Notes: generated by a model from the sequence alone, not told the origin. DNA of 64,000 nucleotides from Saprospiraceae bacterium (GCA_965222645.1 OZ244968.1:5386008-5450007); one strand, 5' to 3'; positions 31,904 to 58,224 are shown, numbered from the stretch's first letter. Made by a program: numbers and translations.

Positions 31904-33562
31904 ATGATGATAGCATATAGTTCTTGCCTTGGTCGTTCATTAATGCCATTTAAGTATTTACTCCTTTTAGGTATCCTGATGGCTTGTAATCGGGTGAGCA
32001 AAAATGGCGATGCAGCCCGGACAGTCGAAAAGCCCAATATTCTGTTTGCATTTGCCGATGATTGGGGAAAGTATGCAAGCTGTTATCAAGGCATTGACGG
32101 GCCCCGGTCGATAAATGCCTTATTCAACACACCTAATGTAGATCGGATAGCAAACGAAGGTATACTTTTTAAGCACGCTTTTGTCAATGCACCATCCTGT
32201 ACACCCTGCCGGAGTTCCCTACTTTCTGGTCAGCATTTTTTTCGCACGGGTAGAGGAGCAATTTTGCAAGGTGCTGAGTGGGATGAATCTATTCCAACTT
32301 TCCCGTTACTCCTGCACAACAGCGGGTACCATATCGGCTATACCTACAAAGTCTGGTCTCCAGGTAAACCCCCTGATGCCGGTTATGGAGGAGTTAAAAA
32401 TCGATTTCAACGGGCAGCTCAATTCAATAATTTTAGCCAGCATGTTGCAAAATTTATGGATGAGGATGGAAAGAGTTTGGAGGAAGCCAAAGGGGTTTTG
32501 TATGAGGAGGTCCGGAATAATTTCCAGGATTTTTTAGATGCAAGGGAGCACGACCAACCTTTTTGCTACTGGTGGGGTCCGACGAATGTCCATCGAAAGT
32601 GGATCTATGGTTCCGGAGAGCGATTTTGGAACCTGGATCCGGAAAAACTAAAGGGGAAAATGCCCTCTTTTCTCCCCGATGTCGATACAGTCCGCACTGA
32701 TTTTGCAGATTATTTAGGCGAGATCATGGCTTTTGATGCAGGATTAGGACTTCTTTTGTCCATCCTTGAGGATCGAGGTGAATTGGATAATACTCTGATA
32801 GTAGTGAGTGGAGATCACGGATTTCCTGGCATGACCAATGGCAAATGCAATCTTTATGACTTTGGAGTGCAAGTGCCATTAGTAGCAAGATGGCCCGGTG
32901 TGATTGGTTCCCGTCGTAAAGTGGAAGATTTTGTCAGTCTCCCTGACCTGGCACCTACTTTTCTTGAGGCCGCTGGCGTAGCTCTCCCAAAAGAGATGAC
33001 ATCCCGAAGTCTGATGGGTATTTTCAGGAGTGGTAACAATGGTCAGATTGAGGATGATCGTGACTATGTTATCACAGGAAGAGAAAGACATGTGCGAATG
33101 GCACGTGCAGGCGCACTGCCCTATCCTCAACGTGCAATCCGGACGAAGGAGTTTTTATACATTATTAATTTCGAACCCGACCGGTATCCCATGGGAGATC
33201 CCCTGGGAGTCGATGACAACAATTATGTTCCCGACATCAATGAACTTACCAATAATACGTTTCATGCATTTGGTGATTATGATGCAAGCCCGAGTAAAGC
33301 ATGGATTGTAGCACACCGAAGGGAACCGGATAATAAAAAGTATTTTCAGTTTGCATTTGGAAAAAGGCCAGCTGAAGAATTATTTGAGATAAGAACAGAT
33401 TCCGATCAGGTGATCAATCTGGCTGGCGATCCCCAATACGAGGAAGTGAGGAAGAAACTTAGAAATCAATTAATGGATGTATTGTCTGGTACCGGAGATC
33501 CAAGGGTCATATCTGATGTAATTCCGTACGAGCATCCACCTTTTGCAGGAGAGGAAGAATGA
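31904..33562 (+). CDS. Sulfatase (formylglycine-dependent, S1 family)
   Basis: 552 aa. Signal/lipoprotein start (LLLLGILMAC), FADDWG, Cys-type FGly motif SCTPCRSSLLSGQ, and downstream SGDHG. Confidence 0.9.
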   Translation: MMIAYSSCLGRSLMPFKYLLLLGILMACNRVSKNGDAARTVEKPNILFAFADDWGKYASCYQGIDGPRSINALFNTPNVDRIANEGILFKHAFVNAPSCTPCRSSLLSGQHFFRTGRGAILQGAEWDESIPTFPLLLHNSGYHIGYTYKVWSPGKPPDAGYGGVKNRFQRAAQFNNFSQHVAKFMDEDGKSLEEAKGVLYEEVRNNFQDFLDAREHDQPFCYWWGPTNVHRKWIYGSGERFWNLDPEKLKGKMPSFLPDVDTVRTDFADYLGEIMAFDAGLGLLLSILEDRGELDNTLIVVSGDHGFPGMTNGKCNLYDFGVQVPLVARWPGVIGSRRKVEDFVSLPDLAPTFLEAAGVALPKEMTSRSLMGIFRSGNNGQIEDDRDYVITGRERHVRMARAGALPYPQRAIRTKEFLYIINFEPDRYPMGDPLGVDDNNYVPDINELTNNTFHAFGDYDASPSKAWIVAHRREPDNKKYFQFAFGKRPAEELFEIRTDSDQVINLAGDPQYEEVRKKLRNQLMDVLSGTGDPRVISDVIPYEHPPFAGEEE

Positions 33563-33839
33563 CGAATGACGAATGACGAATGACGAATGACGAGTTACGA
33601 ATGATGAATGACGAATTACGAGTTACGAATGACGAATTACGAATTACGAATTGCGAATTGCGAATTACGAATTACGAATGACGAATTGCGAATTACGAAT
33701 TACGAATTGCGAATGACGAGTGACGAATTGCGAATGACGAATTGCGAATGACGAATTACGAATGACGAGTGACGAGTTACGAATGATGAATGACGAATTA
33801 CGAGTTACGAATGACGAATTACGAATTACGAATTACGTG
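33560..33839. repeat. Heptanucleotide microsatellite, about 40 copies of T(G/T)(A/G)CGA(A/G)
   Basis: Begins at the sulfatase TGA stop (TGACGAA TGACGAA TGACGAA TGACGAA TGACGAG TTACGAA ...) and ends ...TTACGAA TTACGTG. An 8-unit sub-pattern (TGACGAG TTACGAA TGATGAA TGACGAA TTACGAG TTACGAA TGACGAA TTACGAA) occurs near both ends. Confidence 0.95.
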
Positions 33840-45138: not shown

Positions 45139-46275
45139 TTATGTCAGAAGATCTGTCACCACATGGCCATGCACATCTGTGAGGCGAAATCTTCTTCCCT
45201 GGTACTTATAGGTAAGATTTTCGTGGTCTATACCTAAAAGGTGCAAAATCGTCGCCTGGAAATCGTGCACATGCACAGGATTGTCGATGATATTGTAACT
45301 AAAATCATCAGTCAATCCGTATGTAAGTCCCTTTTTTACACCACCGCCGGCCATCCATATGGTAAAGCAACGTGGATGATGATCTCTTCCAAAATCATTT
45401 TTTGTCAATTTGCCTTGTGAATAGACGGTTCGACCAAATTCTCCTCCCCAGATTACCAGGGTATCATCCAGCATACCCCTCTGTTTGAGATCGATGATCA
45501 AGGCTGCCGATGCTTGATCCGTCTGTCTGGAAAGCCTGGGGATTTGCCCTGGCAGGTTACCATGATGGTCCCATCCCCGGTGATACAGCTGGATAAACCG
45601 CACGTCATTTTCGGCTAATTTCCGGGCGAGCAGACAATTTGCGGCATAAGTGCCCGGAACTTTGCTATCAGGTCCGTATAAGTCAAAAATATGATCTGGT
45701 TCCTTTGAAACATCGAGTGCCTCTGGTACTGATGTTTGCATGCGAAAAGCCATCTCGTATTGATTTATTTTGGAGATTATACCAGGGTCTTTCCAGTCTC
45801 GAGCGTTTTGTCGCTGAATATTTATGATTTTTTCCAACTGATTTTTTCGTGCTTCATATGAAAGTCCGTCTGGATTACCGAGATATAATATTGCATTTTT
45901 TCCAGCTCTAAATTGTACTCCTTGATAGTGGGATGGGAGAAAACCATTCCCCCACAGGCGATTGTAAAGGGGTTGCCCTCCACCACCGGCACCTTGAGAA
46001 AGTAGGACACAGAAAGAAGGAAGGTTTTCATTTTCACTCCCGAGACCATAGGTCACCCATGATCCGATGCTGGGTCTTCCCGGCAGTTGGGATCCAGTTT
46101 GGATAAAAGTCACCGCCGGATCATGGTTTATCGCTTCCGTGTACATTGATTTTACAAAACATAATTCGTCGACAATCTGAGCAGTATGAGGCATTAACTC
46201 ACTGACCCATGCGCCGGAGTCTCCATGTTGCGAAAAGTTGTAGGGGGACGAAACCACTGGGAGTTCTGTTTGTCC
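45139..46275 (-). pseudogene. DUF1501 (sulfatase-fold) protein, C-terminal fragment, separated from its N-terminus by IS66
   Basis: The sequence from ...ELPVVSSPYNFSQHGDSGAWVSELMPHTA...SMYTEAINHDPA... to ...GRDHHP... matches DUF1501. The first 14 codons of the track ORF (45139..46317) are IS-end sequence, not gene. Confidence 0.85.
46268..46275. repeat. 8-bp target-site duplication (left copy), GTTTGTCC
   Basis: Identical octamer at 48662-48669, directly abutting the IS66 terminal inverted repeats. Confidence 0.9.
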
Positions 46276-46344
46276 GTAAGCGTCTAGTGATGAGCGTATT
46301 GTCTGCCTGGATATCATTGTTAATCTTTGTGGAAAAGTGCAAAG

Positions 46345-46638
46345 ATGGCCAGACAGAAAAAAGAAGATGTATTCCCATTAATAAAAGGTGTGTTGGAGGG
46401 GCAGATAAGCAAGGAAGACTTTTGTGAATTGACCAATCTGAAGCTATCGAGCTATCAGTATTGGTTGAGGAGATATCAGAATGAAGTGATGAGTAACGGC
46501 TCTTTTGTGCGAGTAAAGACAAATAAAGTGAGGGATCTGCCTTGCAGCGTTGAGATCAGCATAAATCAAGATATAACGATACGTTTTTCACAACTGGTGC
46601 CCCCAGATTATTTACTTAAGCTTATCGAGCAGAAATGA
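46345..46638 (+). CDS. tnpA: IS66 accessory protein TnpA (orf1)
   Basis: Small ORF (ATG 46345; the track starts at TTG 46327) whose TGA overlaps the tnpB ATG (ATGA at 46635-46638). Confidence 0.7.
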   Translation: MARQKKEDVFPLIKGVLEGQISKEDFCELTNLKLSSYQYWLRRYQNEVMSNGSFVRVKTNKVRDLPCSVEISINQDITIRFSQLVPPDYLLKLIEQK

Positions 46639-47000
46639 TAGGGTTATCCACCACGCACCGGTATTACATGTATCGCCATCCCACAGATATGAGAAAGAGC
46701 TTTACGGGGTTAGCAGGTTTGGTGATCAATGAGATGGGAGTAGATCCATTGCAGGGAGATGCCTACCTATTTGTAAATAAGCGTCGTACGTTAATAAAGG
46801 TATTGATATGGGACCGTACAGGTTTTGTGATCTACTATAAGAAATTATCGTCCGGGACATTTGAGTTGCCGAGTTGGAAAGAAAAAGGATCATCGAAAGA
46901 AATAGAAATTCCGACACTACTGATGATGCTGGAAGGAGTACACATAAAAAGTGCAAAACTACGCAAGCGTTATAGGGGCAAGGTAGCTAAAAGGGCGTAG
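46635..47000 (+). CDS. tnpB: IS66 Orf2-like protein TnpB
   Basis: 121 aa. MYRHPTDMRKSFTGLAGLV...GDAYLFVNKRRTLIKVLIWDRTGFVIYYKKL is the conserved IS66 TnpB core. Confidence 0.9.
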   Translation: MIGLSTTHRYYMYRHPTDMRKSFTGLAGLVINEMGVDPLQGDAYLFVNKRRTLIKVLIWDRTGFVIYYKKLSSGTFELPSWKEKGSSKEIEIPTLLMMLEGVHIKSAKLRKRYRGKVAKRA

Positions 47001-47075: not shown

Positions 47076-48611
47076 GTGGAAAGAGTACGACCAACATATG
47101 AGGAATTGGTTGAAATCAATGCTGCACATGTACAACAAATAAATACACAGACACAGCAAATAAGTGTACAGACACAACAAATAAATGCACATGTACAGCA
47201 AATCGCATTACTTAAATACGAATTAGAACAATTAAAAAAAGCCATTACCGGTCCTAGATCAGAACGATTTATCCCAACGGATACAGATCAAGTTTTACTC
47301 TTTGCAGAAGAAAATACCTCAGATGATGAGATGCCTGATCAGAACCAGACAGAGGTAAAAACACTTAAGAAGAAAAAAAGAGGCAAGCGACCTAAGATGC
47401 CTACCCATCTTCCAGTGGATGAAATCATCGTCGAACCGGAAATAGATACATCTCAAATGGAAAGGATAGGGCAGTATGAGAGCTGGAAGTATACCATCAT
47501 ACCCCCGGAAATCAAAATCATAAAAACCATTCGCCCCAAGTATAAAGACGAGCAGGATAGCATTCATATCGCTGATCTAAATGAAGCCTTCCCCAAGACC
47601 AACTTTGATGCTTCTATGATCGCGTACATGATCATTCAAAAGTTTATGTATCATCTACCTGTTTATCGGCAGGTTAAGATGTTTGCAATGTTTGGGCTGT
47701 CATTTTCAAGATCTACGCTGAACAGCAGAGTAATAAAAGGAGCCGCAAAACTAAAATTACTCTATGAACTGCTTAAAACCATGGCTCTTCAATCAAATTA
47801 CTTACAGGCCGATGAATCGTCCATCCCAGTACTCACCAGAGATAAACCAGGAAGTGCCCTAAAAGGATGTGTGCTGATTAAACTAGCTCCCAAAGAAAAA
47901 TTGGTCGTATTTGATTATATAAAAACTAAAGAAAAGGTAAATATTTTAGGAGGCCTGAATGGGTTTAGTGGTCATCTGCAGGTAGATGGTAATGTCTCCT
48001 ATGAAACGAAAGGAAGACAAGTAGATGTTACCCTCATGCATTGCATGGTCCATAGCCGACGTAATTTTTTTGAAGCAAGAGATTACAATAGAAAAAAAGC
48101 AGACCATATGTTGGGACTAATCAGTCAGCTCTATGACATTGAAAGAAAATGTAAAGAAGACAACCTGGATCCCGAGCAAATACGCCAACGAAGACAAAGT
48201 GATTCAATCCCTGTGCTCAATGACATCAAGAAGTGGCTGGAAGATAATATCCAACCCAATCTACCCACTAATCCCCTACAGCAAGCAATTAACTATATGC
48301 TCAAAAGATGGGATGGTCTAATCGAATACACCAAAGATGGCAATTTACAACCTGATAATAATTTGATCGAAAATCAAATACGTCCCTTGGCATTGGGCCG
48401 AAAAAATTATCTTTTTTGTGGCTCACATGATGGTGCTCGCATGGCAACCATCGCCTATAGTCTGATCGCAACTTGCAAACTCAATGGTATCGACCCTTTC
48501 CGGTGGCTCATTTATGCATTCAATCACATTGATGGGCATGACATCAATAAGCTACATCAACTATTACCCATTGAGAAAAACAAACAGATATTCAAGCAAA
48601 CCATTGCTTGA
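47076..48611 (+). CDS. tnpC: IS66-family DDE transposase TnpC
   Basis: 511 aa (GTG start). N-terminal Gln-rich coiled coil/leucine zipper. Blocks ...LPVYRQ..., ADESSIPVL, LQVDGN..Y, ...HCMVHSRRNF.EA, and NLIENQIRPLALGRKNYLF.GSH.GA. Confidence 0.92.
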   Translation: MERVRPTYEELVEINAAHVQQINTQTQQISVQTQQINAHVQQIALLKYELEQLKKAITGPRSERFIPTDTDQVLLFAEENTSDDEMPDQNQTEVKTLKKKKRGKRPKMPTHLPVDEIIVEPEIDTSQMERIGQYESWKYTIIPPEIKIIKTIRPKYKDEQDSIHIADLNEAFPKTNFDASMIAYMIIQKFMYHLPVYRQVKMFAMFGLSFSRSTLNSRVIKGAAKLKLLYELLKTMALQSNYLQADESSIPVLTRDKPGSALKGCVLIKLAPKEKLVVFDYIKTKEKVNILGGLNGFSGHLQVDGNVSYETKGRQVDVTLMHCMVHSRRNFFEARDYNRKKADHMLGLISQLYDIERKCKEDNLDPEQIRQRRQSDSIPVLNDIKKWLEDNIQPNLPTNPLQQAINYMLKRWDGLIEYTKDGNLQPDNNLIENQIRPLALGRKNYLFCGSHDGARMATIAYSLIATCKLNGIDPFRWLIYAFNHIDGHDINKLHQLLPIEKNKQIFKQTIA

Positions 48612-48661
48612 AACTTAATCCAGTGCCATTTATTACTATACGTAGATTGCAGGACGCTTAC

Positions 48662-48669
48662 GTTTGTCC
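48662..48669. repeat. 8-bp target-site duplication (right copy), GTTTGTCC
   Basis: See 46268-46275. Confidence 0.9.
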
Positions 48670-48951
48670 TGCAGACATTCCTGTGAGACGCTGGCCTTTA
48701 CGTACAGAGTCTGGCAGGTTTTGACCATGAAATTTTTTGATCGTTGGCTTGTGATCAAAAAGATCCAATTGAGAAGGTGCTCCACTCTGAAAGAGATAAA
48801 TCACTCGTTTGACCTTGGCTGGAAAGTGGGTCGTAGGTGGAGAAGCCCGGGCCGGATTTAGAAGCCCGGACAAGGTAAGTGCACCTAATCCAAGAGTTGT
48901 TTTGCTCAAGAAATCCCGGCGGCTGAATGGTTTATAATTATCGCATTCCAT
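48662..48951 (-). pseudogene. DUF1501 protein, N-terminal fragment (Tat signal)
   Basis: The sequence is MECDNYKPFSRRDFLSKTTLGLGALTLSG...VIYLFQSGAPSQLDLFD...RLTGMSAGQ|. Removing the IS and one TSD copy joins ...GMSAGQT to ELPVVSSPYNF in frame. Confidence 0.85.
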
Positions 48952-49169
48952 GGTGAGTTATTCTCTCGACTACAAATTTAACGAATAGCGATGGGAGCTT
49001 AGATCTGGATTGAAGAAGGGAATTTTTAAGGCTGGCAAAGTTTGCACAGGATATCAGAGGTAATATCAACTACTTATTTGCTAGCTCAGTTGTAATATGA
49101 ATCTCTGGTGGCTAGCTTTCTCACCGCCCTGAGTAAATGCACCTGGTAGCCATGTACCTGATAATGTGA

Positions 49170-52100
49170 TAATAAAAGGCTCATGGTCGGTGATCGGACG
49201 GATCGATTTACCTCGATTGTTTCTAAGGGGAGGTTTGATGCGTAGGGAATATACATTATCATTTAGGATAGTATTAATTTTCATCGCCACGTTTCACACA
49301 TCAGAAGTTGCGGAACAAGGTGCTCGTCATCGGTGATCGGACGGATCGATTTACATCAATTGTTTCTAAGGGAGAATTACCGCGTACGGTACGCGTACGA
49401 ATATGTAACAGATAATCAATGTAATATACATCTTAGATATATTAATGTAAACTTTTTATCGATCACTTTTCACAAACCAGAAAATCAGAACAACTGCCTC
49501 AGTAGCCATTGAGCCTTGTTAAGTTTAGCAATCTTAATCTCACTGGGGAGAAATTGTACGTACGGTACGCGCACGAATATGTAGCAGATAATCAAGGGAA
49601 TATACATTATGATGTAAGTTGATATTAATTTTTATGCTCGCGTTTCACGCATCAGAAGCTAGTTAACGAGGAGCCCATCATCGGTGACCGTACGGATCGA
49701 TTTACATCAATTGTTTCTAAGGGGAGAATCGCATGCGTACGGTACGCGTACGAATATATCACAGAATATCAAGGGAATATACATTATCATTTAGGATAGT
49801 ATGAATATTCATTGCCACGTTTCACACATCAGAAGTTGCAGAACAAGGTGCTAGTCGTTGGTGATCGGACGGATCGTTTCACTGCTATAGTTTCACTGGA
49901 GAGAATTGCCGCGTACGGTACGCGTACGAATATGTAACAGAATATCAGTTGAATATACATCATGAAGTAAATTAATATGAATTTTCATGGCCACGTTTCA
50001 CACATCAGAAGTTGCGGACAAGGTGCTCGTCATCGGTGATCGGACGGATCGATTTACCTCGATTGTTTCTAAGGGAGAATTGCCGCGTACGGTACGCGTA
50101 CGAATATATCTCAGAATATCAAGGGAATATACATTATGATATAAATTGATATTAATTTTTATTGCCACGTTTCACACATCAGAAGTTGCGGAACAAGGTG
50201 CTCGTCATCGGTGATCGGACGGATCGTTTCACTACTATCGTTTCACTGTAGAGAATTGTTGCGTACGGTACGCGTACGAATATATAGCAGAATATCAGTT
50301 GAATATACATTATGATATAAATTGATATTAATTTTCATTGCCACATTTCACACATCAGAAGTTGCGGAACAAGGTGCTCGTCGTCGGTGATCGGACGGAT
50401 CGATTTACTGCTATAGTTTCACTGGAGAGGATTGCATGCGTACGGTACGCGTACGAATATGTAGCAGATAATCAAGGGAATATACATTATGATGTAAGTT
50501 GATATTAATTTTTATGCTCGCGTTTCACGCATCAGAAGCTAGTTAACGAGGAGCCCATCATCGGTGACCGTACGGATCGATTTACATCAATTGTTTCTAA
50601 GGGGAGAATCGCATGCGTACGGTACGCGTACGAATATATCACAGAATATCAAGGGAATATACATTATCATTTAGGATAGTATGAATATTCATTGCCACGT
50701 TTCACACATCAGAAGTTGCAGAACAAGGTGCTAGTCGTTGGTGATCGGACGGATCGTTTCACTGCTATAGTTTCACTGGAGAGAATTGCCGCGTACGGTA
50801 CGCGTACGAATATGTAACAGAATATCAGTTGAATATACATCATGAAGTAAATTAATATGAATTTTCATGGCCACGTTTCACACATCAGAAGTTGCGGACA
50901 AGGTGCTCGTCATCGGTGATCGGACGGATCGATTTACCTCGATTGTTTCTAAGGGAGAATTGCCGCGTACGGTACACGTACGAATATATCTCAGAATATC
51001 AAGGGAATATACATTATGATATAAATTGATATTAATTTTTATTGCCACGTTTCACACATCAGAAGTTGCGGAACAAGGTGCTCGTCATCGGTGATCGGAC
51101 GGATCGTTTCACTACTATCGTTTCACTGTAGAGAATTGTTGCGTACGGTACGCGTACGAATATATAGCAGAATATCAGTTGAATATACATTATGATATAA
51201 ATTGATATTAATTTTCATTGCCACATTTCACACATCAGTAGTTGCGGAACAAGGTGCTCGTCGTCGGTGATCGGACGGATCGATTTACTGCTATAGTTTC
51301 ACTGGAGAGGATTGCATGCGTACGGTACACGTACGAATATGTAGCAGATAATCAAGGGAATATACATTATGATGTAAGTTGATATTAATTTTTATGCTCG
51401 CGTTTCACGCATCAGAAGTTAGTTAACGAGGAGCCCATCATCGGTGATCGGACGGATCGATTTACATCAATTGTTTCTAAGGGGAGAATCGCATGCGTAC
51501 GGTACGCGTACGAATATATCACAGAATATCAAGGGAATATACATTATCATTTAGGATAGTATGAATATTCATTGCCACGTTTCACACATCAGAAGTTGCA
51601 GAACAAGGTGCTAGTCGTTGGTGATCGGACGGATCGTTTCACTGCTATAGTTTCACTGGAGAGAATTGCCGCGTACGGTACGCGTACGAATATGTAACAG
51701 AATATCAGTTGAATATACATCATGAAGTAAATTAATATGAATTTTCATGGCCACGTTTCACACATCAGAAGTTGCGGACAAGGTGCTCGTCATCGGTGAT
51801 CGGACGGATCGATTTACCTCGATTGTTTCTAAGGGAGAATTGCCGCGTACGGTACGCGTACGAATATATCTCAGAATATCAAGGGAATATACATTATGAT
51901 ATAAATTGATATTAATTTTTATTGCCACGTTTCACACATCAGAAGTTGCGGAACAAGGTGCTCGTCATCGGTGATCGGACGGATCGTTTCACTACTATCG
52001 TTTCACTGTAGAGAATTGTTGCGTACGGTACGCGTACGAATATATAGCAGAATATCAGTTGAATATACATTATGATATATATTGATATGAATTTTCATTG

Positions 52101-52525
52101 CCACGTTTCACACATCAGAAGTTGCGGAACAAGGTGCTCGTCATCGGTGATCGGACGGATCGTTTCACTACTATCGTTTCACTGTAGAGAATTGTTGCGT
52201 ACGGTACGCGTACGAATATATAGCAGAATATCAGTTGAATATACATTATGATATATATTGATATTAATTTTCATTGCCACGTTTCACACATCAGAAGTTG
52301 CGGAACAAGGTGCTCGTCGTCGGTGATCGGACGGATCGATTTACTGCTATAGTTTCACTGGAGAGGATTGCATGCGTACGGTACGCGTACGAATATGTAG
52401 CAGATAATCAAGGGAATATACATTATGATGTAAGTTGATATTAATTTTTATGCTCGCGTTTCACGCATCAGAAGTTAGTTAACGAGGAGCCCATCATCGG
52501 TGATCGGACGGATCGATTTACATCA
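49170..52525. repeat. Tandem ~176-bp satellite, left arm (about 19 units; three near-identical 880-bp five-unit higher-order repeats)
   Basis: The core GTACGGTACGCG (within GCGTACGGTACGCGTACGAATAT) is at 49384, 49560, 49737, 49913, 50087, 50263, 50440, 50617, 50793, 50967, 51143, 51320, 51497, 51673, 51847, 52023, 52199 and 52376. Spacing is 174-177. Five unit types a-e recur with period 880 (49560, 50440, 51320). Units at the left edge (49170-49560) are degenerate. Confidence 0.95.
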
Positions 52526-52601
52526 TTAGCTATGATGCAGGAACGATCCTTGTTTGACAATCTGCTTCCAAAGCACTATCTTGGTTACCTAAATAGGATA
52601 C

Positions 52602-52832
52602 ATGCCCACGTATTTCATAGTGGATGGGGTTAAGATTGAACTGTACTACAATGATCACAATCCACCCCATTTCCATGCAAGAATTGCTGAACATGATGCA
52701 ATCATAAGTATCGAAATGGCTGAAATCTTGCATGGAACTCTACCCTCTAATAAAATCTCATTCATCAAGAAGTGGGCTGAGGAAAACAGGACAACATTGC
52801 AGGCAATATGGAACGAACTAAGAAAGAAATAG
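52602..52832 (+). CDS. DUF4160-domain protein (putative toxin-antitoxin-like module component)
   Basis: 76 aa, with the family hallmark ...YYNDHNPPHFHARI... Confidence 0.8.
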   Translation: MPTYFIVDGVKIELYYNDHNPPHFHARIAEHDAIISIEMAEILHGTLPSNKISFIKKWAEENRTTLQAIWNELRKK

Positions 52833-53359
52833 GTTTAAAGGCCTACCGTAGAATCCCACGAATCATCAAGATCACCAAGGTCAGGGATTTCAAGATCTAC
52901 TGTGCCTTCAACACAGGCGAATACAAGATCATCAATTTCACCAAGTTTTTCGAACGATGGAACTTGAAGAAAACAGATTTTGCCTATCCCCTACTTAAAC
53001 CATCAAGATTCAGGAAGGTCAAGCTGATTAACGGCACCCTAAGCTGGCCTGACATAAAAAAGACCATCAAAATCGGTAGCGGACAAGAGTTCGAAACATA
53101 TCTTGATCTCGATCCCGTCGTACTCTACGAATCAAGTGAAGATGATCATAAAGCCAATCAGAGATACAAGATCGGCCAACTTCTAAAAAGCGCTAGACTT
53201 GATGCTGGTCTTACTCAGCAACAACTCGCAATCCGCTCTGGCACCACTAAGAACTACATATCCCGCATCGAGAATAATAGATCTGACATTGAACTACGAA
53301 CTTTAAGGAAGATCGTAGAGATTGGACTAGGAAAAAACCTCGAAATCGCCGTAACTTAA
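52808..53359 (+). CDS. DUF2442-like N-terminal domain fused to an XRE-family helix-turn-helix DNA-binding domain
   Basis: 183 aa. The N-terminal half (IIKITKVRDFKIYCAFNTGEYKIINF...GTLSWPD) is DUF2442-like. The C-terminal LLKSARLDAGLTQQQLAIRSGTTKNYISRIENNRSDIELRTLRKIVEIGLG is a Cro/C1-type HTH. Overlaps the DUF4160 ORF by 25 nt. Confidence 0.75.
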   Translation: MERTKKEIGLKAYRRIPRIIKITKVRDFKIYCAFNTGEYKIINFTKFFERWNLKKTDFAYPLLKPSRFRKVKLINGTLSWPDIKKTIKIGSGQEFETYLDLDPVVLYESSEDDHKANQRYKIGQLLKSARLDAGLTQQQLAIRSGTTKNYISRIENNRSDIELRTLRKIVEIGLGKNLEIAVT

Positions 53360-53486
53360 AGCAGCATTGCTCGGCATCATGACGCCATCTCCTCTTGCAC
53401 CAATTAACCACCTCACTTAGTTGATCTGCGTTCAACCGATTATCAATTCGTCAACAAAAGTAACGAGACGGAGCATATGCCCAAAA

Positions 53487-55115
53487 CGATTGTTTCTAAG
53501 GGAGGTTTGATACGTACGGTACGCGTACGAATATGTAGGAGATAATCAAGGGAATATACATTATGATGTAAGTTTATATTAATTTTTATGCTCGCGTTTC
53601 GCGCATCAGAAGTTAGGAAACGAAGGGCCCATCATCGGTGATCAGCTGGATCGATTTACCTCGATTGTTTCTAAGGGGAGGTTTGATGCGTACGGTACGC
53701 GTACGAATATATCACAGAATATCAAGGGAATATACATTATCATTTAGGATAGTATTAATTTTCATTGCCACGTGTCACACATCAGAAGTTGCGGAACAAG
53801 GTGCTCGTCATCGGTGATCGGACGGATCGATTTACTGCTATAGTTTCACTGGAGAGAAATGCATGCGTACGGTACGCGCACGCATATATTACAGAATATC
53901 AATTGAATATACATAATTATATAAATTAATATGAAATCTTATGCTCGCGTTTCACCAGCAGAAGGTAGTTAACGAGGGGCCCATCATCGGTGATCGGACG
54001 GATTGATTTACATCAATTGTTTCTAAGGGAGAATTGCCGCGTACGGTACGCGTACGAATATGTAACAGAATATCAGTTGAATGTACATAATGAAGTAAAT
54101 TAATATGAATTTTCATGGCCACGTTTCACACATCAGAAGTTGCGGAACAAGGTGCTCGTCGTTGGTGATCGGACGGATCGATTTACTGCTATAGTTTCAC
54201 TGGAGAGAAATTGTGCGTACGGTACGCGTACGAATATATAGCAGAATATCAGTTGAATATACATTATGATATAAATTTTTATTAATTTTCATTGCCACGC
54301 TTCACCCATCAGAAGTTGTGGAACAAGGTGCTCGTCATCGGTGATCGGACGGATCGATTTACATCAATTGTCTCTAAGGGAGAACTACCGCGTACGGTAC
54401 GCGTATGAATATATTCTAGAATATCAATTGAACATACATAATGATATAAATTAATATGAAATCTCATACTCGCGTTTCACGCATCAGAAGGTAGTTAACT
54501 TGGGGCCCGTCATCGGTGATCGGACGGATCGATTTACCTCGATTGTTTCTAAGGGGAGGTTTGATGCGTACGGTACGCGTACGAATATATCACAGAATAT
54601 CAAGGGAATATACATTATCACTTAGGATAATATTAATTTTCATTGCCACGCTTCACCCATCAGAAGTTGCGGAACAAGGTGCTCGTCGTTGGTGATCGGA
54701 CGGATCGTTTCACTGCTATAGTTTCACTGGAGAGAAATGCATGCGTACGGTACGCGTACGAATATATTACAGAATATCAATTGAATATACATAATGATAT
54801 GAATTAATATGAATTTTTGTGCTCGCATTTCACCCATCTGAAGGTAGTTAACGAGGGGCCCATCATCGGTGACCGTACGGATCGATTTACATCAATTGTC
54901 TCTAAGGAAGAACTGCCGCGTACGGTACGCGTACGAATATGTAGCAGTTAATCAATTGAACATACATAATGATATAAATTAATATGAATTTTTATGCTCG
55001 CGTTTCACCCATCAGAAGGTAGTTAACGAGGGGCCCATCATCGGTGATCGGACGGATCGATTTACTTCGATTGTTTCTAAGGGGGTTTGCTGCGTACGGT
55101 ACGCGTACGAATATG
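53487..55115. repeat. Tandem ~176-bp satellite, right arm (10 more-diverged units)
   Basis: The same core is at 53514, 53690, 53867, 54041, 54217, 54392, 54568, 54745, 54920 and 55094. Spacing is 174-177. Units resemble types a, b, c and e of the left arm, plus an additional type. Confidence 0.95.
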
Positions 55116-55208
55116 TTACTAAAGTTCAGCTACTTATAGATAGATCATATACTATATATGCAAATACACCAACTGCTGGCTCGTAATCAGGATGAAAATC
55201 CCCTTCAA

Positions 55209-55448
55209 TCAACCCATCTCTGGCAACGCCTCAAACTCCTTCCGCTTGCTTTCAAACCACTCCTGCATCGCCACAGGTGATTTCATCAATTCCTGCATCT
55301 GCTGCATCGCTTGCAAATGATCTGTATCACCCTGCTCAAACATCTCTCTCCCATGTTCTTTACTCATTTCAGCCATTTCGTCGAATGTCGATGCAACAAA
55401 TTCTTTTTCACAGGCACCACCTAGTTGTCGGCATGTCATTTTTTTCAT
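55209..55448 (-). CDS. DUF1059-family small protein
   Basis: The 79-aa version starts MKKMTCRQLGGACEKEF...MSKEHG...MQELMKSP.AMQEWFESKRKEFEALPE. The track's 119-aa form adds 40 codons that overlap the 3' end of the upstream gene. Confidence 0.7.
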   Translation of the reverse strand: MKKMTCRQLGGACEKEFVASTFDEMAEMSKEHGREMFEQGDTDHLQAMQQMQELMKSPVAMQEWFESKRKEFEALPEMG

Positions 55449-55515
55449 CTTAGTAGACTTTAGATTTATTCCGTGATTCGAAATTACAATTTTCGTATTA
55501 GTCTCTTCTATCCGT

Positions 55516-58224
55516 TTAAATCGGCACGTTCGATAATTCATAAATGGTACCCTGGTAAGCACCTTCAAATTGATTACCGTTTTTATCCTCTAGCTGGTAT
55601 AAGATTTCAACTATCCAGGTGGGTGACAGATCCGGAATTTCCAGCATCACGGTTTTATTGTCGTTTACAAATTTAATCTCGCTGATGTCAAGAGATTTTT
55701 CATCGTATCGATCAGAGCCATACCGGCGGGATCGTTTTAGCTGCCACGTATTTATTTGAAAGTTATTGCGATCGATTTTCAACGGATCAATTGGCTCACT
55801 AAAGGTGATTTCGATTCCATCCATCCATGTATTGATCGCCAAAGGAAGGTTTAGAGGCTTTTTCTCATCGTAATTTATGCGATATAATCCACCTGTCTGA
55901 AGCATCTGACTAGTAGCCCATGCCGACATACCACAGATATATAGCTGGCCATCAGAAGGATTAAATCGGCCTCTGATAAGTCCGGTCGGACATTGTGGAA
56001 TAGGTAATTCAATGATTCCCCCCTGCTCTTTGTTTTTTATTTTTTCTTTAAGTACTAAAAATATTTTCCCATATCCATATGACAAACTCAATAACGAATT
56101 ATTTAAGGGACCCCAAAGATCTGTTTTTGCCCAAAGCAACTCTGCAGGAGATCTGTCATATCTCATGTCAACCCAGCACAAGGGCATTTCCATGGCTTTA
56201 TCACTCGTATCCTGTGGTGCACCATATCCCCACATATTGCCATAAAACTTTCCTGGCAATACACGGTTTATCCGGTTCATTGGATTCCAATAGCCCTCCT
56301 GGTCTGTCACATAAAACGATCCATCCGGATTTAAACAAACTCCATTTGCAGCCCGGAAACCATTTGCCAGAATTTCGGATTCTGTTCCGTCTGAGCTGAC
56401 CTTTATCAAAGTGCCATGCTGGGGCACGAGAGATGTTCGGGCATGCCTTCCACTCTTTGCGTAATAAAAATTTCCTTCGTCATCAACTTGTAATCCCATT
56501 GCAAATTCGTGAAAATGTTCCGTGACCTGGTGATCATTATTAAAACTTTCGTAGAAATCAATAATTTCATCACCGTTGAGATCGTGCAGTCTTACAATCT
56601 GATCCCGACAAGTGACGTACGTTTGGTTTTTAAAAACTTTTATCCCCAACGGCTGAAACATTCCTGTTGCAATTCTCTGCCAATTTATTTCACCAGTTAT
56701 ATTATTTATTTTTTCTATTTTCCAAACTTCCCCATCGATAGTGCAGACGAGTGCATCTCTTCCATCGTTGATAAAATCTATACCTGTCGGCCTTATTCTG
56801 CTTTGCCATCTATTGTTGAGTGGAAGAGAAAAGATGTCAAGCGATAATGCCCTCTCACTATCCATATTGATAATATTGCTGCTTAGGGATTCAGAATTTG
56901 TTTTCTTTCCACCCTGAGTGTATTTTCTTAAATCCTCAATTGCACCCGATGAATATTCTTCATCTGATGCGATCTCCTCCTTAGACATCAGAATTTTAAT
57001 TTTGTCGCTATTTGCCGGTTCGATTACCAATACATGATACCCATCTTCAATTTTCACGGTTGCATTTAGTGCAATCATTTTTACTTTAAAATGCTCCGGA
57101 AGAATTCGCATTGATAGAGTCCTGGAAACATTAGATGCATTAATTGTACGGGTAATGACAGATTGATTGGCTATTGTATCAAGGCTGTACATTTCCAGAA
57201 TTGATGCTTTTCCTACTGTGTATTTGAGGATGACATTTCCGTTGTGATGATACAGGCCTTTATAATGAGCCCAGTCCCGAGGTAAGGGTCCGAATGGCCG
57301 TCCATCTAAACCTCTTATTCTCGGATCTTGAAAACTTCCCGTAAGTGGATTTGCCCAACCCGGTGTGATCGGGTTTGCAGCTAGAAGATTCCCCTTGGTA
57401 CGGGGATAGACATTGTGTTGGTCATCTAATAGTATGCTTTCCCAATCTATAAATCCTTTACCGGTCCAGATTCCTGCCAAGCGTAAAAGGTCGTGATCGA
57501 AGCACGCAAAAGTCTCGCCTGCGGCTATACCGCCTGGTCCTCCGTCAAGTCGCATCGCTATGCCCTTGTAAGCAAAGTTTACATCGCTATAATCTTCGTT
57601 AGGCAACGGTGCTCTCCCACCGGAAATCTTTTTCTGAGAATCATTGTCATCGGCGATTTCATAACATTGAACCAAGAAATTGCCGTAATCCATATCGGAC
57701 CATGGGTGATAGTCTTTTGGAGGAGGACCAATGGTATCCCCTTTTGGAAGTTGAGCAAGGTACTCTGCTGTAATCTCAGTATAAGACTCAGATTGATACT
57801 CTTTTATAAACTCCTCCCTTATAAAATGAATTACATCATATTTCTCGAGTGGCGAGAGATGTACTTGAGGAGGCATCTGACCAAACCCTTGAGTTAAGAC
57901 TTTATAAATACTGTGAGGATCAGAGCCCTTTTTAAACTCATCTTCCCAAAATTTTCGAGAATTCGGAAGTGAGCCCGGTTGTTCAGAATCGCCGTGACAA
58001 GCATAGCATGTGTTCCGGTATATAGTCTGTCCCCGAAAATACTTACTCCGATCGTTATCGCGCAAAAAGGCGGCATGGTCAAGACGATTTTCATATTCTG
58101 GTAGATCAACGGATTTTAGGATATACTGATCCCCGGGAAGAATACGGTTGGAATCTACATTTTCTGCACAGGCCCAAATCATCAACAGAAATGCTGGAAT
58201 CAGTAGCAATTTCGATTTATCCAT
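55516..58224 (-). CDS. Cytochrome-c-domain protein fused to beta-propeller (sugar dehydrogenase-like) region
   Basis: About 902 aa from ATG 58224 (MDKSKLLLIPAFLLMIWAC lipoprotein-like). Heme motif CYACHGD followed by ...GFGQMPP. The C-terminal two-thirds is beta-rich, with NGD..ID and GF....G blocks reminiscent of SGL/PQQ-type propellers. Confidence 0.55.
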   Translation of the reverse strand: MDKSKLLLIPAFLLMIWACAENVDSNRILPGDQYILKSVDLPEYENRLDHAAFLRDNDRSKYFRGQTIYRNTCYACHGDSEQPGSLPNSRKFWEDEFKKGSDPHSIYKVLTQGFGQMPPQVHLSPLEKYDVIHFIREEFIKEYQSESYTEITAEYLAQLPKGDTIGPPPKDYHPWSDMDYGNFLVQCYEIADDNDSQKKISGGRAPLPNEDYSDVNFAYKGIAMRLDGGPGGIAAGETFACFDHDLLRLAGIWTGKGFIDWESILLDDQHNVYPRTKGNLLAANPITPGWANPLTGSFQDPRIRGLDGRPFGPLPRDWAHYKGLYHHNGNVILKYTVGKASILEMYSLDTIANQSVITRTINASNVSRTLSMRILPEHFKVKMIALNATVKIEDGYHVLVIEPANSDKIKILMSKEEIASDEEYSSGAIEDLRKYTQGGKKTNSESLSSNIINMDSERALSLDIFSLPLNNRWQSRIRPTGIDFINDGRDALVCTIDGEVWKIEKINNITGEINWQRIATGMFQPLGIKVFKNQTYVTCRDQIVRLHDLNGDEIIDFYESFNNDHQVTEHFHEFAMGLQVDDEGNFYYAKSGRHARTSLVPQHGTLIKVSSDGTESEILANGFRAANGVCLNPDGSFYVTDQEGYWNPMNRINRVLPGKFYGNMWGYGAPQDTSDKAMEMPLCWVDMRYDRSPAELLWAKTDLWGPLNNSLLSLSYGYGKIFLVLKEKIKNKEQGGIIELPIPQCPTGLIRGRFNPSDGQLYICGMSAWATSQMLQTGGLYRINYDEKKPLNLPLAINTWMDGIEITFSEPIDPLKIDRNNFQINTWQLKRSRRYGSDRYDEKSLDISEIKFVNDNKTVMLEIPDLSPTWIVEILYQLEDKNGNQFEGAYQGTIYELSNVPI

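Follow-up and report, generated by a model that had tools for sequence, protein, structure and literature searches.

What brought a pair of genes into the middle of a single unit of a tandem satellite is the question raised by a stretch of 64,000 nucleotides from Saprospiraceae bacterium (GCA_965222645.1 OZ244968.1:5386008-5450007), here called the window. An array of 176-bp satellite units in this window is interrupted once, by an insert encoding a DUF4160 protein and a protein with a DUF2442-like domain and a helix-turn-helix (HTH) domain of the XRE type. A preliminary description had offered two readings: the pair landed in a pre-existing array, or the array was amplified around the pair and is the binding substrate of the HTH protein. 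The first of these is favoured by our analysis, given that the interruption is in phase and the empty site is restored exactly. We conclude that the insert is very probably an isolated integron gene cassette with a toxin-antitoxin (TA) operon similar to DhiTA, integrated at a secondary, non-att site (attG) of a satellite that was already in place. The earlier recognition of a gene-pair insert in a satellite was correct; what it missed was the identity of the insert as an integron gene cassette with an attC remnant. Coordinates of all features are collected in Table 1.

Boundaries of the insert and the empty site

The core of the satellite unit (GTACGGTACGCGTACG, up to three mismatches) was found 28 times, at 49384-55094. 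The spacing of the cores is 174-177 bp throughout, with the sole exception of the step from 52376 to 53514, which measures 1138 bp. It had been claimed that one unit is interrupted and that its flanking cores are 1138 bp apart, and both statements were confirmed. Tandem Repeats Finder (TRF) also placed a 176-bp array on both sides of the insert (49244-52521 and 53489-55114). In a MAFFT alignment of all units, the left part of the interrupted unit ends ...GATTTACATCA at 52525 and the unit sequence resumes ...ATTGTTTCTAAGGG. Deletion of 52526-53488 leaves a 175-bp unit with the exact 24-mer of the intact units (GATTTACATCAATTGTTTCTAAGG); a degenerate motif for this 24-mer has 14 matches, all of them within the array.

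No bases of the unit were duplicated or lost at the junction. The ends of the insert carry neither terminal inverted repeats nor a target-site duplication, and readings as a transposon, a miniature inverted-repeat transposable element (MITE) or an insertion sequence (IS) element were rejected. Target duplications and short inverted repeats were sought at 52526 and 53486, the ends first proposed, and none was found. The insert is discrete and in phase, as had been described, and its proposed length of about 961 bp was revised: the CG at 53487-53488 is assigned to the insert and not to the unit because of its homology to attC ends elsewhere, which moves the right boundary from 53486 to 53488 and brings the length to 963 bp. 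Its reading as an integron gene cassette that retains an attC remnant explains why the junctions are in phase and free of duplication.

Cassette ends and the attC remnant

The first 12 bases of the insert, TTAGCTATGATG, are the sequence that follows the crossover G in the homologous locus L001, ...CAAAACG|TTAGCTATGATG (...CGCCAAAACG|TTAGCTATGATG; the bar marks the cut). The counterpart in two other homologous loci, L010 and L011, is CCG|TTAGCCATAATG. At the other end, ...CCCAAAACG (...GCCCAAAACG) matches the attC ends of L001, L015, and L044 (...CAAAACG|TT). The cassette as delimited starts TTAGCTATG... and ends ...CAAAACG. Both ends thus lie at the integrase cut point, between G and TT, and nothing is duplicated, which argues for conservative site-specific recombination.

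Over 120 nt, the segment 53360-53488 shares 79% identity (E 1e-22) with an attC of L001 (11294-11430) that belongs to a second, HigBA-like cassette. The R'' box of that attC, GGGATAGAAC, complements the start of its own cassette, GTTCTATCCC, and the site is scored at 27.3 bits by a covariance model of attC sites (R1, described below). When the bottom strand of the window attC was folded, a long imperfect L-box hairpin was obtained and no R box. No complementarity was detected between the cassette start and R'' in the window at k>=8, and R' is now a hybrid, G|ATTGTTT. Judged from its sequence, the window attC is read as a site that would have decayed and become immobilised. A scan of the 64-kb window with R1 found no second attC. 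On the target side, the left arm has the haplotype ACATCA and the junction reads A|TT, which gives CA|ATTG (triplet AAT) as the target; sister units read CG|ATTG (GAT) at the same position.

Loot et al. demonstrated by experiment that IntI1 inserts cassettes through recombination between attC and a genome site ('attG'), the target consensus being 5'-GWT-3' (10.1101/2022.09.11.507474). Isolated single attC sites without an integrase are known as 'SALIN' (IntegronFinder 2.0, PMC9024848), and recombination at secondary sites has also been described (PMC4889954). The aadB cassette in RSF1010, as cited in PMC9024848, is a precedent for a cassette outside an integron. We propose that one unit of the existing satellite offered an ordinary, non-att site, TCA|ATTG, with which a circular cassette recombined through its attC. 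The catalyst would be a tyrosine recombinase of the integron type whose gene is located elsewhere; it would have cut the attC at the canonical G|TT and the target between A and A of TCA|ATTG. The hybrid R' and the decayed R'', which lost its AAC, would then have left the cassette stranded with a single attC and no integrase nearby, as a 'SALIN'. Such a cassette would be self-sufficient, with its own promoter and an operator beside the toxin start codon.

The locus shares with known secondary-site or SALIN cassettes a single attC, the absence of an integrase and of neighboring attC sites, and the canonical G|TT crossover. The insertion is likewise conservative, and the decay of the attC afterwards ('domestication') is as predicted (10.1101/2022.09.11.507474; PMC9024848). 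It differs in having arisen naturally, probably in a Saprospirales-like (Bacteroidota) chromosome to judge from the gene content and the names of the homologues, with a target inside a tandem satellite and a target triplet AAT instead of GWT. The mechanism is a known one; new is the instance, that is, the TA family as integron cargo, the host lineage, and a satellite target with its own empty-site controls. The locus would document, to the nucleotide, how an integron cassette integrated in nature at a place outside an integron. Its control is built in, as seldom happens: the same molecule holds 27 paralogous copies of the target that are uninterrupted. The locus also suggests that in stranded cassettes R'' decays and the genes, promoter, and operator stay intact.

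Several observations weigh against the identification as an integron cassette. R'' of the window (~53366-53373) reads CATTGCTC, i.e., CATTGCT--C, in place of the expected CATAGCTAAC; the AAC triplet is missing and the attC is not intact. With filters off, R1 gave no hit for this attC, and its best score in the window, 9.6 bits, falls elsewhere. Because the model misses the site, cassette membership rests on homology and on the positions of the junctions. No tyrosine recombinase was detected in the 64-kb window by tblastn, and thus no canonical integron integrase. With an integron-integrase cut-off of 265 bits, the recombinases of L001 score 118-157, and their matches break in two at the IntI-specific segment. 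The AAT target departs slightly from the IntI1-derived GWT consensus, G|AT being present in sister units only. Finally, the unit subtypes on either side of the junction differ (A and A', see below), and some shuffling after the insertion must be assumed.

The defective R'' and the absence of an integrase would also agree with an arrival of a different kind, by transposition, by illegitimate recombination, or by homologous import of a satellite-cassette-satellite segment, the match to attC ends being coincidental or inherited. The region is clearly unstable, with an IS66 element 0.6 kb from the array. We regard this origin as highly improbable: terminal inverted repeats and a target duplication are lacking, each end coincides exactly with the G|TT crossover, which other loci define independently, and homologous import merely shifts the question to the donor genome. 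Integration as an integron cassette accounts for these exact ends, and the homologous loci bear on it further.

Homologous loci and their attC arrays

The family sample consisted of 80 metagenomic loci and several long contigs; flanks were counted over 83 loci. Relatives of the antitoxin numbered 508 at E<=1e-3, most of them 174 aa long, and where named they belong to Saprospiraceae, Lewinellaceae, Phaeodactylibacter, or 'Bacteroidota'. A DUF4160 gene was found directly upstream in about 70 of the 83 loci, and the pair is therefore a conserved two-gene module.

The first bases of an integron cassette complement the inverse core (R'') of the cassette's own attC. This signature was observed when the flanks of the closest relatives were aligned: the reverse complement of the cassette start lies just after the antitoxin stop codon (CATAGCTAAC in L001, TATGGCTAAC in L010 and L011). 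Three consecutive attCs are present in L010, where each cassette start complements the next R'' along the array. The same complementarity of start and R'' runs from cassette to cassette through the four attCs of L044, and six co-oriented attC hits were found with R1 around the pair in L089, a Saprospiraceae metagenome-assembled genome (MAG). For a systematic count, boxes anchored on GTT were taken 75-120 nt upstream of the toxin and compared with boxes anchored on AAC no more than 12 nt from the stop codon. Cognate boxes were complementary at 9 or more of 10 positions in 16 of 62 loci, vs. 0.8% of non-cognate pairings. The box sequences vary between cassettes while staying complementary, that is, they covary.

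An alignment of 13 short-type attCs (A2) has an invariant AAC...GTT, 88% of its cells are paired, and 13 pairs show compensatory changes; none of 500 shuffles matched this pairing. The covariance model R1 was built from these 13 sites. It also detects attCs outside the training set, including the array of L089 and the long-type attC of the HigBA-like cassette in L001. A 430-bp tandem repeat was observed in L001 (1-1002; 2.3 copies, 98% identical), with attC hits of 27-32 bits at 1-142, 431-572, and 861-1002; its appearance is that of a very small cassette duplicated in tandem inside the cassette array.

Recombinases next to the homologous arrays (L001 and L061) are fragmentary or XerC/D-like, stay under the integron-integrase cut-off, and appear to be without the IntI-specific insertion. 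Two copies of a XerC/D-like recombinase gene, 99% identical, are present in L001 (2221-3024 and 11527-13577), one of them followed by an IS91-family (Y2) transposase gene just past the end of the cassette array. These copies are probably a separate mobile element and not an integron integrase.

TA cassettes are known from sedentary chromosomal integrons, for example in Vibrio (PMC4889954). As in those, the cassettes described here have their own promoter and stand among co-oriented cassettes with similar attCs (in L001 beside the HigBA-like cassette, and in L010, L044, and L089). They differ in the TA family (DUF4160/DUF2442-HTH) and in the phylum, and the window cassette lies outside any array. 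The homologous loci indicate that a very common, unnamed DUF4160/DUF2442-HTH family (at least 508 relatives, mostly from Saprospirales/Bacteroidota where named) travels as integron cassettes, and that attC cassette arrays are present in a phylum with few catalogued integrons. To our knowledge, complete integrons are almost unrecorded in complete Bacteroidota genomes. One could speculate that Saprospirales and related Bacteroidota keep large attC arrays served by a non-canonical, XerC/D-like recombinase without the IntI-specific domain, and that self-expressed, DhiTA-like TA cassettes escape from them into repetitive non-coding DNA. Long satellites would then be tolerated or even preferred landing pads, possibly through their many identical weak sites. 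We consider this scenario as a whole unlikely.

Many homologues are found on contigs of 0.9-1.4 kb, about the length of one cassette (L014, L022, L031, L040, L052, L057, L064, L067, L090). More contig ends than expected fall close to the pair, 17 of 64 in the first decile (Kolmogorov-Smirnov p 0.03). This excess was first taken as a sign of flanking satellites; assemblies broken at repeated attC sites explain it better. Two independent assemblies, L002 and L003, stop at the same base, 39 nt into an attC.

L002 (9724-10564) and L003 also represent the closest homologue, at 70% identity. The toxin start codon has been lost there (GGATACGCCCCC vs. GGATACATGCCC), and in place of the 5' part of the cassette, which is missing, stands directly the 3' end of a RibD_C gene. 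Synteny of the window with L002 through the neighboring 905-aa cytochrome c/DUF6797 gene product was considered and rejected. The neighbor is only 51% identical, vs. 70% for the antitoxin, and in L002 the cassette is oriented opposite to this neighbor; these data therefore provide no evidence for vertical inheritance. A lone antitoxin gene, without a DUF4160 gene, was observed in a glycosyltransferase cluster of a Lewinellaceae MAG (L091, 9840-10620). The gene retains an operator-like palindrome, and direct repeats of about 55 bp (AATCATTTCA...CCAACGCCAAAAAyTTCC...CTCCCA) flank it, an arrangement that suggests a different history of insertion or duplication. A search of a plasmid collection gave no full-length antitoxin homologue, just an HTH-domain match of 36% coverage on a Desulfosarcina plasmid.

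Putative toxin-antitoxin genes

The two genes of the cassette overlap by 25 nt. The product of the first scored 61 bits with the NCBIfam model toxin_DhiT, under the equivalog cut-off of 100, and so belongs to the same superfamily without being an equivalog. In the second product, the HTH resembles those of restriction-modification controller proteins, HipB, and the 434 repressor, and the DUF2442 match is sub-threshold (E 0.075); 18 of 41 family members match DUF2442, with a best E of 1.8e-5. Of the domain assignments made earlier, DUF4160 and the HTH are thus supported by Pfam, and the DUF2442-like domain is marginal in the window protein and clear in those 18 relatives. In exact-protein look-ups neither of the window proteins was on record, nor was P0047. 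A search of the PDB returned no relative of the toxin, and PADLOC gave generic HTH matches only.

DhiTA of Dickeya dadantii is a validated type II TA system of DUF4160 and DUF2442 proteins, toxin-first and autoregulated (PMC8198452). This experimental precedent supports the earlier suggestion that the pair is a TA-like module. DUF4160 is counted among the toxin/effector domains, its fold being unknown (PMC12065111). By analogy, we infer that the DUF4160 protein would be toxic and would be neutralised by the DUF2442-like domain. The operon resembles DhiTA in having the DUF4160 gene first and an overlapping downstream gene for a DUF2442-like partner. It differs in the extra C-terminal XRE HTH of the antitoxin, which makes a protein of ~174-183 aa, in the marginal DUF2442 match, and in the toxin score (61 vs. 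100 bits). Autoregulation was established experimentally in DhiTA, whereas here it is implied by a conserved operator.

Candidate promoter and operator

The promoter-like site and the palindrome listed in Table 1 precede the toxin gene. By a strict criterion, at least 30 of 63 loci have a related palindrome (consensus GTACCTAATTAGGTAC) no more than 80 nt upstream of the toxin ATG, vs. 0.2 expected from shuffles, and by eye an operator-like palindrome is present in most of the remaining loci. The palindrome is a probable operator for the XRE HTH of the antitoxin, which may repress its own operon.

That the units of the array around the HTH protein contain a GC-rich palindrome (CGTACGCGTACG) invites the reading that the satellite was amplified around the cassette as a multi-copy binding substrate for this protein, in the manner of a sink or of a partition-like or iteron-like array. 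The family operator often has GTAC outer half-sites, and the satellite core (CGTACGGTACGCGTACG) has three GTAC motifs. The 18-mer operator of the window occurs once in the window (52584), yet neither the full palindrome nor the conserved operator core CTAATTAG is found in the satellite at up to four mismatches. The family consensus matches the satellite only at five mismatches, in AT-rich DNA and at chance level. The in-phase interruption of a single unit points instead to insertion into an existing array, and the place of the cassette bears no relation to the outer ends of the array or to its recent 880-bp amplification.

The association with repeats is not a property of the family. The proposed search for homologous pairs flanked by repeats was carried out, and some 80 metagenomic pairs are without a flanking satellite; in 81 of 83 loci no repeat with a period of at least 30 bp adjoins the pair, and the repeat of L041 is an array of clustered regularly interspaced short palindromic repeats (CRISPR). 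There is one other homologue, L048, with short tandem repeats of one kind on either side of the pair. We judge the amplification of the array as a binding substrate to be extremely improbable, and the corresponding proposal is not upheld; the likely operator is inside the cassette and not in the satellite. With it goes a tempting over-reading, that of a DNA-binding protein with 'its' palindrome array.

L048 was observed to be the only other repeat-embedded case among the ~80 loci. The pair (1077-2450) stands there between two copies of a composite block, (GGTCATTGAT)n then (GGAATTTG/GGAGTTT)n, and no attC boxes are visible. The CRISPR array of L041 (4191-4951) lies ~300 bp upstream of the pair and consists of a 36-bp repeat, GTTGTAGCTGCCTTTATTTTGAAAGGTAAAAACAAC, with a period of ~66 bp.

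The satellite array

In addition to the 176-bp period, a double period of ~350 bp was reported by TRF. Much of the left arm (49560-52200) is a higher-order repeat of five units (880 bp) in three copies that are 97.6-99.7% identical, and there is one additional unit at 52023. Divergence is higher and regularity lower in the right arm. In the MAFFT alignment of units, the left part of the interrupted unit belongs to the amplified A subtype and its right part resembles the A' subtype. The array went on evolving independently after the insertion, the 880-bp copies standing to the left of the cassette. A higher-order satellite in the style of a centromere is unusual in a bacterial chromosome. The left edge of the array (49190-49560) is irregular: the first unit is without the palindromic core, a deletion lies between ...GATGCGTA and GGGAATATAC at ~49243, and the unit at 49384-49559 differs strongly from every other unit.

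The same sequence stands at the insertion point in all 28 units, and the units themselves might be degenerate attC-like or attI-like sites, or cassettes without open reading frames that form an integrase-less attC cluster ('CALIN'), among which the cassette found a preferred, specific site. The sequence ...GGAAC/TTAAC ~40 nt upstream of the junction and ATTGTTTC at the junction form a weak inverted repeat, and duplicated tiny cassettes do occur, as in the 430-bp repeat of L001 with an attC hit in each of its three copies. With filters off, however, R1 gave no significant hit in the array, its best being 9.6 bits (E 1.3) in the AT-rich part, and single strands of the unit fold no better than shuffles (z -0.04 and -0.60). 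As seen from the observed junction, the nearest GTT in the unit stands 4 nt to the right, the ends of the array (49190 and 55115) are not at the junction position, and the 174-177-bp period with its higher-order structure fits unequal crossing-over and not cassette capture. We consider it very unlikely that the units are att sites. Integration at an ordinary, non-att site of the satellite is preferred.

The satellite itself was sought elsewhere. The pattern GGTACGCGTACG-N150-175-GGTACGCGTACG gave only five single matches in genome contigs and none in viral contigs. Four were in high-GC actinomycetes and were taken as chance, and the fifth was an unrelated 177-bp repeat, in two copies, in a Paludibacter MAG. 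No match to the satellite was found in the plasmid collection, and Rfam at E<=1 on 48600-55600 gave just a chance small nucleolar RNA match.

Genomic surroundings

Table 1. Positions of the cassette, the satellite, and neighboring features, counted from the first letter of the window.
Feature	Position	Strand	Remarks
Integron-type gene cassette, 963 bp	52526..53488	+	single copy in window (self-match only); identification very probable
Cassette 5' end, TTAGCTATGATG	52526..52537	+	R' core part right of G|TT crossover; identical to L001
Promoter-like site, TTGACA-17-TATCTT	52554..52582	+	best sigma-70-like match in 51300-53700, 10/12 positions; consensus match only
Candidate palindromic operator, GTTACCTAAATAGGATAC, 18 bp	52584..52601	+	between -10 element and toxin start codon
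Putative toxin gene, 76-aa DUF4160 (DhiT-like)	52602..52832	+	Pfam PF13711 E 2.6e-15, 56.8 bits vs. cut-off 23
Putative antitoxin/repressor gene, 183 aa	52808..53359	+	DUF2442-like N-terminal domain and C-terminal XRE-type HTH; HTH_3 E 9.5e-11
attC remnant, long type, 129 nt	53360..53488	+	L''/L' stem and 3' end ...GAGCATATGCCCAAAACG intact; R'' degenerate
176-bp satellite array, whole	~49190-55115	.	
Satellite left arm	49190..52525	.	includes three 880-bp 5-unit higher-order copies; ends with 150 bp of interrupted unit (52376-52525)
Satellite right arm	53489..55115	.	starts with last 25 bp of interrupted unit (53489-53513)
Rest of split DUF1501 gene	45139-46317	-	
IS66 orf1	~46345-46637		
IS66 TnpB	46635-47000		
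IS66 transposase	47076-48611		
DUF1501 N-terminal fragment, 97 codons	48661-48951	-	twin-arginine translocation (Tat) signal (SRRDFL)

The array occupies the intergenic space between a DUF1501/PSD1/PSCyt operon on one side and the cytochrome c/DUF6797 gene on the other. The DUF1501 gene of that operon is split by the IS66 element mentioned above. Farther away, a 7-bp microsatellite, GAATTAC x 40, was observed between two open reading frames at 33557-33837.

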